DNA of 62,471 nt, counting the filler. It is 7 parts of 7 records of this genome, joined end to end, with 100 filler letters (N's around TTAATTAATTAA, not from the genome) between each part and the next. Parts side by side here need not be neighbours in the genome. Positions count along the whole stretch, not along the records: positions 38,068 to 62,471 come from SRR20825010_2789; 6 more parts are not named here. The stretch is one strand, 5' to 3'. The notes beneath the pieces were generated by a model. That model saw only the letters and a program-made list of their open reading frames with translations. It was not told the origin of the DNA and did no database searches. Shown piece by piece: positions 54,462 to 57,115 of this stretch (position 1 is the stretch's first letter; each line of letters begins with the position of its first letter). Both the position numbers and the translations under genes were made by a program.

Positions 54462-54534
54462 AGATCTTTCTAAACCATGAATTTACAAAACTGCCTTTGG
54501 AAATAGAGCGTTACCTTATGCACATGCATGAAAA

Positions 54535-55143
54535 TTATAATTCGATTGTCCTAAATGTCAAATTGATTCTGGGAGTACGCACTTTCTTTGTTGGCGGTAA
54601 ACGGTGTAGCCAATGTGTTTGTGTCTCACCCTTCATTACCAATAAGCTACCATGACCCAGCCATAATTCCACCTTTTCTTTGGTGCTTTTATGTTTGAAG
54701 ACAAATTTACGTTCCACTCCAAAACTCAACGAGGCTATGGCTCCCTCTTGTTTTAATTCCTTTTCATTGTCGGAATGCCAGCCCATACCTTCTTCACCCG
54801 AATGGTACACATTGAGCAAACATGAATTATAGGTTTCCATGGAAAGGCTCTCCGTCAATTTTTTAAGTTCCATTAACTCGGGAGTCCAAAACAATGCCCT
54901 CTTTGTGCTGTTGGAATAAGTGTACTCAAAAGGTTTATCACCAAACCAAGCCACTTTTCTCTTGGTTACTATGCGCTTGCCGAACATATGTACCACATCG
55001 TGTTCCCAAGGAATGGTATTGAGCAGTTGTTCGAAGTAAAAATCAGCTTTTTCCAGTGCTACAATAGGTCCGAAATAATTCACGGTGCCGTCCTTGGGCA
55101 GTATATTCTGATTCGGGTCTATCTGATTCCTGAATAAATCCAT
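54535..55143 (-). CDS. AlkB-family 2OG-Fe(II) dioxygenase (ALKBH2/3-like)
   Basis: NSCLLNVY, MGWHSD (HxD), IASLSFG, WLHRLP, RINLTFR. Confidence 0.9.
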   Translation of the reverse strand: MDLFRNQIDPNQNILPKDGTVNYFGPIVALEKADFYFEQLLNTIPWEHDVVHMFGKRIVTKRKVAWFGDKPFEYTYSNSTKRALFWTPELMELKKLTESLSMETYNSCLLNVYHSGEEGMGWHSDNEKELKQEGAIASLSFGVERKFVFKHKSTKEKVELWLGHGSLLVMKGETQTHWLHRLPPTKKVRTPRINLTFRTIEL

Positions 55144-55161: not shown

Positions 55162-56190
55162 TTAACGGGAAAGCCTTTTTTGACTTTTCTCCAATATTTC
55201 GGCAACCCGCTCCCTTAGCACTTCCGGCTCAATAATTTTGGCATAGTCACCAAACATAAGGTACCAGCGGGAAAAACCATTTTTCCAATCGGTCGTCATA
55301 AAAGTCATTTCAACTTGGTCTCCCTTTTCTTCGCTGGCAACCAAGCCATAATGCTTGGTTTGACCTCTTATATACTTGGCCACGGACTTCTCCACCAATA
55401 TTTTTACCTTGGTTTTGGAAACTTCCTCTTTTTTTTTCCTGTGCTCATCAATGGTGCCGTGTTCCAATAAGAAATCAAGCGAAGTCCTTGCTATTTTATG
55501 GATTCTATCCGTTCTAAAATGGCGATAATCGGTCCTCAGATGACAATAACCCAAAATGTACCAAAATCCATTTTCGTTAAAAAGTCCAACAGGCTCTATG
55601 TGTCTCTCTAAGGGTGCCTCTTCCCGTAACGATTCATATCTCAAAAACACTTGTTTCCGCTCTGCAATGCTTTCGAACAAAATTTCAAGGGCATTGGGCA
55701 CCTTATCATTGAACAAAACTTGCCCTGGCACTATGGAAACTTGGGATTCCAATGCTTCCACCCAATCCTTTTCCTTGCCCCGAAGAACCGATTTCAACTT
55801 GAACATTGCAGATTCGTAGTAAGCACCAAGGGACTTATCCGTAAATTGTTGCATCAATTTTTCCGCTGCCACAAAGCTCCCCGCCTCTTCGCGTGTAAAC
55901 ATGACCGGGGGCAATCGATACCCCTCCATAATGGAATATCCAACACCTGCCTCGCTAATAATGGGGACTCCAGAGGCTTCCAAAGTTCTCACGTCCCGGT
56001 AAATGGTACGCAAGCTTACCTCAAAGCGGTCCGCAAGTTCCTGTGCCTTTACAATCCGTTTGGTCTGCAACTGTATTAAAATAGCAACTATCCTATCAAA
56101 ACGTTTTACGGTGTCCATTCCCATAATTGCGTGAGCTATCTCCCAAAGATAGGATTTCAATCCGTGGATGGAAGATGTTTTCCTGCTCAT
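55162..56190 (-). CDS. YafY-like HTH-WYL-WCX transcriptional regulator
   Basis: AQELADRFEVSLRTIYRDV HTH; WYILGYCHLRTDYRHFRTDRI WYL motif; start may be 56190, 56124 or 56118. Confidence 0.92.
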   Translation of the reverse strand: MSRKTSSIHGLKSYLWEIAHAIMGMDTVKRFDRIVAILIQLQTKRIVKAQELADRFEVSLRTIYRDVRTLEASGVPIISEAGVGYSIMEGYRLPPVMFTREEAGSFVAAEKLMQQFTDKSLGAYYESAMFKLKSVLRGKEKDWVEALESQVSIVPGQVLFNDKVPNALEILFESIAERKQVFLRYESLREEAPLERHIEPVGLFNENGFWYILGYCHLRTDYRHFRTDRIHKIARTSLDFLLEHGTIDEHRKKKEEVSKTKVKILVEKSVAKYIRGQTKHYGLVASEEKGDQVEMTFMTTDWKNGFSRWYLMFGDYAKIIEPEVLRERVAEILEKSQKRLSR

Positions 56191-56219
56191 ATTATATCAT
56201 TTATACGCATTGTCTCCAT

Positions 56220-56254
56220 CAAAATTATTTGGAACATATGACAGCAGCTTGTCA
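56220..56254 (-). promoter_or_regulatory. Palindrome plus Bacteroidetes -7 element facing the WYL-alkB genes
   Basis: Minus strand TGACA-AGCTGC-TGTCA-N11-TAATTTTG. Confidence 0.75.
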
Positions 56255-56286
56255 ACAGTATTTTTTTTGAATTCAATTTTTACTAC

Positions 56287-56321
56287 TGACACGGGGCTGT
56301 CACACACCCCTCCTAATTTTG
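56287..56321 (+). promoter_or_regulatory. Palindrome plus Bacteroidetes -7 element facing the DinB-family gene
   Basis: TGACA-CGGGGC-TGTCA-N11-TAATTTTG. Confidence 0.75.
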
Positions 56322-56356
56322 TTTTCAGAAACAATAAACCTTTAAATCACAATCAA

Positions 56357-56854
56357 ATGGAAAACACCATTAATGAACAGACAACGACCCAAGTAATGAC
56401 ACCTGAACAGTTTTTGGAACAATACCAAGGACACAGAAGACTTACCCGAAGGGTTATCGAGGCCTTTCCTGAAAAAGAGTTTTTTAATTACAGTATTGGA
56501 GGGATGCGTCCTTTTGCTGAAATGACCAAAGAACTTTTTGCCATTGCAGTTCCAGGACTTACTGAAATCGTATCAGGAAAAACCGTTGAATTTGACGAAC
56601 ATCGTGACTACGGTAGCACCAAGGCCGATTTTTTAAAAAAATGGGACCAGGATACCGAAGAAATCAATAAACTTTGGAGCCAAATTAGCCTCGAGAGATT
56701 TCAAGAGGAGATAAAACTTTTTGGGCAGTATGAGGGTACCGTCTTATCCAGTATACAGTATTTTGTGGATAACGAGATTCACCACCGTGCCCAAGGTTAT
56801 GTTTACCTGCGTGCCCTTGATATTGAACCTCCATTTTTTTACGACCGAAGCTAA
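56357..56854 (+). CDS. DinB/YfiT-superfamily four-helix-bundle protein (not Pol IV)
   Basis: GHRRLTRRVIEAFP, GGMRPF, DNEIHHRAQGYVYLRAL..EPP. Confidence 0.88.
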   Translation: MENTINEQTTTQVMTPEQFLEQYQGHRRLTRRVIEAFPEKEFFNYSIGGMRPFAEMTKELFAIAVPGLTEIVSGKTVEFDEHRDYGSTKADFLKKWDQDTEEINKLWSQISLERFQEEIKLFGQYEGTVLSSIQYFVDNEIHHRAQGYVYLRALDIEPPFFYDRS

Positions 56855-56857
56855 GTT

Positions 56858-57076
56858 ATGATGACCGTCCATGTTTTTAAGACATCCGTAAAACGAAAAG
56901 GAGAAGTGAAACAGCTTCGTCCTTGGCTGAACAGGCTGGTCGATACTAATGGTTGCTGGAATTTTGACCTCGAAGATTGTGACAACATACTCAGGGTCGA
57001 AACCAAGAACCTGAAGGCTACAATAATTTCCACGCTCTTACAGAACAATGGTTTTCATTGTGAAGAATTGCACTGA
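56858..57076 (+). CDS. Small ferredoxin/HMA-like fold protein (72 aa)
   Basis: VFKTSV...WNFDLEDCDNILRVE...GFHCEEL; starts 3 nt after the DinB-family stop. Confidence 0.75.
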   Translation: MMTVHVFKTSVKRKGEVKQLRPWLNRLVDTNGCWNFDLEDCDNILRVETKNLKATIISTLLQNNGFHCEELH

Positions 57077-57087
57077 GCAGTAAAACA

Positions 57088-57115
57088 AAAAGCCCCTTTT
57101 TAAAAAGGGGCTTTT
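57088..57115. terminator. Bidirectional intrinsic terminator
   Basis: AAAAGCCCCTTTTT/AAAAAGGGGCTTTT perfect palindrome between convergent genes. Confidence 0.85.

Follow-up and report, generated by a model that had tools for sequence, protein, structure and literature searches.

The DNA analyzed here is a stretch of 62,471 bases (below, the window), in which a gene for a WYL-domain regulator and an oppositely oriented operon starting with a DinB-family gene are separated by two copies of the palindrome TGACA-N6-TGTCA. The locus raises the question of which protein reads these palindromes and whether it switches the flanking genes on or off. According to the results below, the palindromes are very probably operators of the adjacent WYL protein, each of them forming one unit with a sigma-A −7 box.

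Two Mirrored Palindromes between the WYL Gene and the DinB Operon

The elements of the region between the two genes are as follows.

56239–56254, minus strand: operator O-W, palindrome TGACAGCAGCTTGTCA (TGACA-N6-TGTCA), serving the distal promoter of the WYL gene (P1)
56220–56227, minus strand: −7 box TAATTTTG of P1, predicted transcription start at about 56215
56287–56302, plus strand: operator O-D, palindrome TGACACGGGGCTGTCA (TGACA-N6-TGTCA), serving the DinB-family promoter
56314–56321, plus strand: −7 box TAATTTTG of the DinB-operon promoter, predicted transcription start at about 56326, leader of about 31 nt
56255–56286, no strand: A/T-rich spacer between the operators, with a T-tract (A-tract on the other strand) 5–11 nt upstream of each palindrome

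The palindrome has two matches in the window against 0.03 expected, and none of 100 shuffled sequences gave two. Outward of each copy, 11 nt away, stands TAATTTTG, the minus-strand copy of which reads CAAAATTA at 56220–56227. The combined pattern TGTCA-N11-TANNTTTG also has two matches in the window, both at this locus, versus 0.02 expected. The doubled arrangement with identical boxes after exactly 11 nt, which an earlier sequence-only reading of this DNA had pointed out, is thus read directly in the letters and is backed by both chance expectations.

In a map of flavobacterial transcription start sites (PMC9723704), the sigma-A box TAnnTTTG is placed at −12 to −5. With this numbering, the proximal TGTCA of each unit falls at −28 to −24 and the whole palindrome at about −39 to −24, with its center at −31.5. 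The core of the palindrome, GAC-N8-GTC, is a WYL-type pair of half-sites. The A/T-rich spacer may serve as an UP-like element. A search of positions 55900–56500 in Rfam, with E-value thresholds, matched no RNA family.

The promoter consensus described for Bacteroides combines a −7 TAnnTTTG with a −33 TTTG. At this locus, the −7 TAnnTTTG is present, and a −33 TTTG or TTG, commonly located 19–21 nt upstream, is lacking.

Conservation of the Motif and Its Spacing

Related loci were collected by scanning one genome per species with a 16-sequence alignment, which gave at least 600 matches, of which at least 575 were confirmed as relatives. All locus counts are at the species level and refer to the best 80 of these at least 575 loci, the gene content of which was assessed by tblastn with four window proteins. 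Close relatives of the regulator (at least 61% identity) are spread across Flavobacteriaceae and some Cytophagales.

The 80 loci (843,827 bases) contain 146 exact palindromes, versus approximately one expected from composition, and a reading of the match table placed every exact palindrome upstream of the WYL gene or the DinB operon. This placement holds where the two genes are 3.5–4 kb apart or rearranged (L044, L057, and L074). The DinB-family gene was found in 75 of the 80 loci, on the strand opposite to the WYL gene, and the palindrome is located upstream of all 75 genes, being exact in 74. On the WYL side, the palindrome is present in 75/80 loci (71 exact), and the copy in L067 actually faces a small open reading frame (ORF); no WYL-side operator was found in the remaining five loci (L055, L057, L069, L073, and L075).

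The distances around the palindromes vary widely: 40–59 nt to the ATG of the DinB-family gene (912 nt with an intervening gene), 90–647 nt to the WYL start, and 38–415 bp from operator to operator, reaching kilobases in L044, L057, and L074, where the genes are separated. The N6 and N11 intervals stay fixed while these flanking distances shift by tens to hundreds of bases. On the DinB side, TAnnTTTG follows at exactly N11 in 72/75 loci and at N10 in one; in two others, a box with one mismatch stands at N11. On the WYL side, TTTG is found at N11 in 59/75 loci and at N10 in four. The motif and the 11-nt spacing are therefore kept in the orthologues of many marine Bacteroidota, as the sequence-only reading would have it. 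The P1 box itself is weaker than the DinB-side box: the full TAnnTTTG is found in just 26 of the 75 loci and T[AT]nnTTTG in 54. The letters within N11 mostly differ, 63/74 and 67/74 being distinct on the two sides. As a separate observation, the 11-nt spacer of the DinB side (56303–56313 in the window) is C-rich in most loci, with the consensus Ca.cCCcctt., and that of the WYL side is not conserved.

A TTG at a spacer of 17–23 nt, the range generally assumed for the −33 element, was detected in 0/74 promoters on the DinB side and 0/74 on the WYL side. This is a necessary consequence of the position of the palindrome, which, as suggested earlier, covers the place of the −33 element. In addition, the consensus is asymmetric. 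The gene-proximal half carries the extension GG[CT]-TGTCA-C on both sides. Both this asymmetry and the T-tract are oriented along the direction of transcription, and the orientation-specific GG[CT] suggests that the transcription machinery is contacted directionally. The extended consensus of the DinB side reads CTAC-TGACA-nAgGGC-TGTCA-C, and the consensus tTTTTTaCTAC before O-D is kept even in loci with widely separated operators.

The invariable spacing also bears on the sign of regulation. A repressor of the CapW/BrxR type, an unlikely but substantial alternative, would sit as a dimer on −39 to −24 and block RNA polymerase at both promoters until a stress ligand released it, derepressing the DinB operon and P1. 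Such action would fit the overlap of the operator with the expected seat of sigma domain 4 and the presence of an operator on the regulator's own gene, which is typical of autorepressors. An exact spacing to the −7 box that survives frequent indels speaks against it: in AusR, a characterized flavobacterial repressor, the distance between operator and −7 box is variable, and some operators overlap the box. Moreover, many P1 boxes are poor and a −33 element is missing, so that there would be little to repress.

The same data concern the identity of the binding protein. It is very improbable that the palindromes belong to a factor with its gene in another place, such as a dimer of the Crp/Fnr type or a LexA-like repressor of Bacteroidota, with the WYL gene as a mere neighbor, even if Crp/Fnr-type factors use 5-6-5 palindromes as well. 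The sites accompany the WYL upstream region in 75/80 loci, and the DinB operon where the genes are separated; their GAC/GTC cores are WYL-type, and the DNA-reading arginines of the WYL protein are invariant. The center at −31.5 also differs from the class II position of −41.5. A LexA-like operator of Bacteroidota was considered separately and rejected, as the motifs GGA-N5-TCC and CTAA-N5-TTAG (PMC8565304) differ from TGACA-N6-TGTCA.

In the window and the 80 loci, which the regulon survey covered, just three further kinds of genes were found under the operator: a second DinB-family gene, an NmrA-like gene, and the small ORF alone. In two Marivirga genomes (L068:4381–4977 and L080:4404–5004), a second DinB-family paralogue stands ahead of the WYL gene and is driven by the WYL-side operator (Pfam, L068). 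In a metagenome-assembled genome of Salegentibacter (L074:7019–8441), an operator drives an NmrA-like gene ahead of the DinB-family gene and the small ORF. The small ORF alone is under the operator in L067.

The Regulator Protein

According to Pfam, the regulator contains HTH_11 (2.2e-16), WYL (2.1e-19), and WCX (5.2e-9) domains, all above the cut-offs. Its architecture comprises a winged helix-turn-helix (wHTH), a three-helix bundle, WYL, and WCX. In the AlphaFold2 model (predicted local distance difference test score (pLDDT) 95.2, predicted template modeling score 0.80), there are helices at 78–94, 97–112, and 116–128.

The sequence search against the PDB gave Arthrobacter PafBC (6sj9) as the best match (1.7e-15), followed by M. 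smegmatis PafB (3e-10); DriD was not found in this search at E 0.01 or better, and for CapW/BrxR the sole hit was to the WYL domain (7tb5, E 1.6e-3). In the structural comparison by Foldseek, the activators ranked first: PafB (9fnd_X, E 6e-16, template modeling score (TM) 0.57), PafC (E 1e-14, TM 0.60), and DriD (E 6e-15; TM 0.60 for 8tp8_B and 0.62 for 9pfq_Q). The repressors were placed lower (CapW 7tb6, E 6e-10, TM 0.29; BrxR 7t8k_B, E 2e-9, TM 0.30). The structural relationship with CapW and BrxR (E 6e-10 to 2e-9) lends the repressor alternative some support, and the greater closeness in sequence and fold to PafB/PafC and DriD (TM 0.57–0.62, against approximately 0.3) speaks against it.

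Arginines R61 and R65 of the query (R39 and R43 of the 320-aa form of the protein, see below) align with PafB residues 46 and 50. In the description of PafBC (PMC8635444), the GTC of the −26 element is recognized by R46 and R50 of PafB. Among 97 sequences, down to 29% identity, no change was seen in R39, T40, and R43 of the HTH or in R201 and F203, and R204 and R207 are nearly invariant; R201, R204, and R207 are arginines of the WYL ligand site.

Modeling of two copies of the regulator supported a dimer, with a score of 0.61 and 0.00 for the best of three controls; the runs agreed in at least 80% of the contacts, and the pLDDT of the partner was 81. Of 30 proteins with structures solved as one-chain pairs, 21 attained the passing mark; of 23 with single-chain structures, none did. 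Since DriD dimers are among the solved structures, the result may reflect the memory of DriD or likeness to it only. The palindromic form of the operator is consistent with a dimer.

Comparison with Known WYL Regulators

WYL activators of DNA-damage genes are known from Actinobacteria (PafBC and SiwR), Alphaproteobacteria (DriD), and Moraxellaceae (DdaA). Every WYL protein compared from the literature as a regulator of such genes is an activator, which is a further argument against repression.

PafBC, as described in PMC8635444, is a heterodimer in which one HTH is placed on the DNA, at a single half-site at −26, and the second HTH binds sigma domain 4. It is described as controlling approximately 150 genes. 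The regulator studied here resembles it as the closest solved relative by sequence, in the conserved reading arginines, and in promoters without an upstream sigma element. The −26 element (GTC at −27 to −25) is located 10–11 nt upstream of TA, and the GTC-to-TA distance is identical. The geometry shared with PafBC, proposed by the sequence-only reading, is indeed evident when TGTCA(C/T)-N10-TA is set against the consensus tGTCgg(N10)tA(N3)T given in PMC8635444. The differences are that here there is one regulator gene per locus, a full palindrome (exact in 74/75), and a predicted homodimer.

DriD of Caulobacter crescentus is described (PMC13004042, PMC10853764) as a homodimer with the order wHTH, linker, three-helix bundle, WYL, and WCX, the bundle contacting beta and the C-terminal domain of alpha (alpha-CTD). 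Its pseudo-palindromic site overlaps −35, and in the promoters described in these papers the distance from the site to −10 is identical in all and there is no −35 consensus. The regulator model shows the same order of elements (TM 0.60–0.62), and the promoters share the palindrome over the −35 position, the fixed distance to −10/−7, and the absence of the upstream sigma element. As a difference, DriD has a multi-gene regulon without control of its own gene. The core spacing is N7 in DriD, against N8 here: the cores given in PMC12392091 are CGAC-N7-GTCG for DriD and CGWCA-N5-TGWCG for DdaA.

The earlier suggestion of PafBC/DriD-like activation finds support in so far as PafB/PafC and DriD are the nearest relatives of the protein in sequence and fold; the heterodimer of PafBC has no counterpart here, with a single gene and a full palindrome.

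By analogy, SiwR of Mycolicibacterium smegmatis is the nearest counterpart and a better precedent than those named in the sequence-only reading. In PMC10693628, SiwR is described as a homodimeric WYL activator divergent to a DinB_2/DUF664 operon, with a single operator, a 19-bp imperfect palindrome between −10 and −35, of which the −26 region is required. According to the same paper, SiwR requires HTH residues R38/R42 and WYL residues R204/R207, and in the siwR deletion strain, the induction is lost and the basal level is unchanged. The likeness, drawn from the description of SiwR and not from a comparison with its sequence, includes a single regulator gene, a predicted homodimer, a divergent operon of the DinB/YfiT superfamily, and an apparently local regulon; R39/R43 and the RxFRxDR motif (R201, R204, and R207 in the 320-aa form) match the required arginines of SiwR. 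The differences are the other phylum, the promoter grammar (−7 TAnnTTTG and no −35), the two operators, one for each divergent promoter, plus the basal promoter P2 described below, and the partner genes, which encode a PF05163 DinB protein and an HMA-like 72-aa protein instead of DinB_2 and DUF664.

CapW and BrxR share with the regulator the general scheme of WYL-domain HTH dimers at palindromes in promoters of adjacent operons, and they are its structural relatives in Foldseek. They differ in fold (TM of approximately 0.3) and in their neighborhood, which is a phage-defense operon in their case, against DinB-family and AlkB neighbors here.

A Second Promoter and the Start of the Regulator

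The WYL gene has a second box close to its start.

56144–56151, minus strand: −7 box TATCTTTG of the proximal promoter of the WYL gene (P2), predicted transcription start at about 56139
55162–56124, minus strand: WYL-domain regulator as read from M23 (320 aa); in its longest form, the ORF reaches 56190 (342 aa)

The P2 box is more strongly conserved than the P1 box. TATCTTTG is exact in 77/80 loci, and its distance to the ATG at M23 is 19 nt in 73 of the 78 loci with the box. In the DNA alignment of the 80 loci, tcc-TATCTTTG-gga is conserved at the nucleotide level, including invariant wobble positions. In-frame stops upstream of M23 occur in 5/80 loci, and representative homologues begin at approximately residue 6 of the 320-aa form. 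Because of this invariance, the stops, and the homologue starts, TATCTTTG is taken as a second −7 box, and the real start of the regulator, judged from the sequence, is probably M23 at 56124. Public annotations of the regulator are divided between the 342-aa and 320-aa forms. Coding of the first 22 residues of the 342-aa ORF was rejected, as "LKSYLW" (residues 11–16) corresponds to the invariant TATCTTTG box, in addition to the stops in five loci.

All five loci without the WYL-side operator retain P2, and P2 therefore looks like a basal promoter, with P1 as an add-on. Since P2 is located downstream of the P1 operator, this operator cannot control it, which speaks against the repressor alternative. 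In two of the five loci (L069 and L073), the P2 box ends 4 nt before the ATG, so that the regulator mRNA would be leaderless.

Proposed Mode of Regulation

The reading we favor, with moderate confidence and by analogy with SiwR and DriD, is that a homodimeric WYL activator binds −39 to −24 and recruits RNA polymerase to promoters without a −33 element. A homodimer of the regulator would bind each palindrome, centered approximately 31.5 bp upstream of the predicted start. The WYL domain would sense a signal, and the bound dimer would then recruit or adapt RNA polymerase, substituting for the missing −33 contact. The inducing signal, again by analogy, would be single-stranded nucleic acid arising from genotoxic or alkylation stress; this is probable because of the conserved WYL arginines and the DinB and alkylation-repair neighborhood. 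The dimer would switch on two units, namely, the operon of the DinB-family and HMA-like proteins and its own distal promoter P1, together with alkB behind it in the window genome. P2 would provide a separate basal supply of the regulator, and P1 would add positive feedback. The many poor P1 boxes (TAnnTTTG in 26/75) are sensible for an activator-dependent promoter. The presence of a single gene and a complete palindrome, together with the predicted homodimer, fits activators such as DriD and SiwR better than strict PafBC sigma adaptation. A bolder version, in which upstream promoter recognition for the unusual Bacteroidota housekeeping sigma factor passes to one WYL homodimer with PafBC geometry (GTC 15 nt before TA), is tentative, and we lean slightly against it.

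Several points weigh against activation, a sign of regulation suggested by analogy and promoter logic. On the DinB side, the −7 box matches the consensus perfectly in 72/75 loci and stands behind a T-tract, as expected for an intrinsically active promoter, and it could belong to a strong promoter needing repression. WYL repressors such as CapW and BrxR likewise bind palindromes in the promoters of neighboring operons. The argument from the missing −33 TTG presupposes that Bacteroidota promoters need this element, and the absence is no independent observation, the palindrome lying in its place. The spacing in orthologous promoters is partly inherited, with just two independent instances per genome, and the sample is the best 80 of at least 575 loci. 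The half-site spacing GAC-N8-GTC also exceeds that of DriD and DdaA by 1 bp.

Between activation and repression lies a dual switch of the MerR or SiwR kind, always bound to the operator, neutral or mildly repressing without the ligand and activating with it. In PMC10693628, SiwR is described as binding its operator without the ligand, binding alone being insufficient for activation, and in PMC13004042, apo DriD is described as autoinhibited via the three-helix bundle; in addition, the position of the site would hinder the polymerase in the absence of a productive contact. The unchanged basal level in the siwR deletion strain (PMC10693628) runs against such a switch, and nothing in the data separates it from plain activation. 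We consider the dual switch improbable, and activation remains the preferred reading.

The DinB Operon

The operon served by O-D contains two genes and ends in a hairpin.

56357–56854, plus strand: DinB-family protein (PF05163/DinB_2), 165 aa, first gene of the operon (Pfam)
56858–57076, plus strand: second gene of the operon, encoding 72 aa with a predicted ferredoxin fold of the HMA-like type (AlphaFold2, Foldseek)
57088–57115, no strand: bidirectional terminator-like hairpin ending the DinB operon (terminator scan)

The PF05163 DinB family is a four-helix-bundle family and not the DinB polymerase. The 72-aa gene was found in 74/80 loci, with one weak match. The AlphaFold2 model of its product (pLDDT 90.5) has the predicted order beta-alpha-beta-beta-alpha-beta, and Foldseek indicated similarity with Atx1/HAH1-type chaperones at TM 0.72–0.79, yet with E-values of 8e-3 or worse. 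No Pfam family matched the protein, and the atlas search gave unnamed clusters of Bacteroidota and nothing else. The MxCxxC motif is absent from it. In the alignment of this protein, Cys68 is invariant and Cys41 nearly so (at least 90%), and the sequence WNFDLEDCD is nearly invariant, with the Cys alone variable. The 72-aa protein may act together with the DinB-family enzyme, as its partner or by donating metal to it.

AlkB and Neighboring Genes

Downstream of the WYL gene, the window contains the following gene.

54535–55143, minus strand: AlkB-type 2-oxoglutarate–Fe(II) oxygenase, separated from the WYL stop upstream of it by a terminator-free gap of 18 nt

In the window genome, alkB is probably co-transcribed with the WYL gene. 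Among the 80 loci, alkB is downstream of the WYL gene and co-directional with it in 27, all of them Flagellimonas/Allomuricauda-like, and in 10 of these 27 loci, a block of approximately 1.9 kb lies between the two genes. In L009 and L020, the block contains genes for an AraC-methyltransferase of the Ada type, a PF09859 oxygenase, and a zinc-binding Ada protein (Pfam, L009). Because of its presence in 27/80 loci and the variable block, alkB belongs to a variable alkylation-repair neighborhood and not to the conserved core. The sequence-only reading had counted alkB as part of the regulated system, and in this respect it has to be narrowed to one lineage. The alkylation-repair block together with AlkB is co-directional in L009:6111–8558 and L020:6105–8544 and convergent in L067:6029–7581, and the window retains AlkB alone.

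According to Pfam, no phage-defense operon stands next to the regulator, the neighbors being DinB-family, AlkB, Y_Y_Y/LuxR, and sortilin/BNR genes; PADLOC was not searched. The absence of a defense island within this scope also disfavors a repressor of the CapW/BrxR type.

The window was additionally scanned for E. coli-type promoters, which is the wrong grammar for Bacteroidota, and only the terminator calls were used. The scan contained a perfect 12/12 match, TTGACA-16-TATAAT, at 54534–54561 (minus strand), overlapping the end of alkB and upstream of a Y_Y_Y/LuxR-type gene; it is probably meaningless for the Bacteroidota sigma factor.

Significance

Literature searches found no description of a WYL regulator, or of the TGACA-N6-TGTCA motif, in Flavobacteria or other Bacteroidota, in line with the earlier statement that none was known in Flavobacteria. 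In the parts of the SiwR paper (PMC10693628) that mention Bacteroidota, the phylum is named just for the spread of DinB families and as a soil phylum.

With a conserved WYL operator standing at PafBC-like spacing in place of the −33 element, the locus is a natural test of how far these activators depend on the recognition by sigma domain 4. If the proposed takeover of upstream recognition is true, the geometry of the activator and the polymerase would be ancient and would not rely on the sequence usually recognized by sigma domain 4. The two mirrored units would then be a stress switch with built-in positive feedback, in which an inducible P1 is placed over a basal P2, and it would control a DinB-family enzyme with its dedicated HMA-like partner. 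For the family, the locus offers a corrected start codon for a widespread regulator and a regulon composed of a DinB-family and an HMA-like protein, and for marine flavobacteria, a compact and probably stress-inducible promoter cassette.

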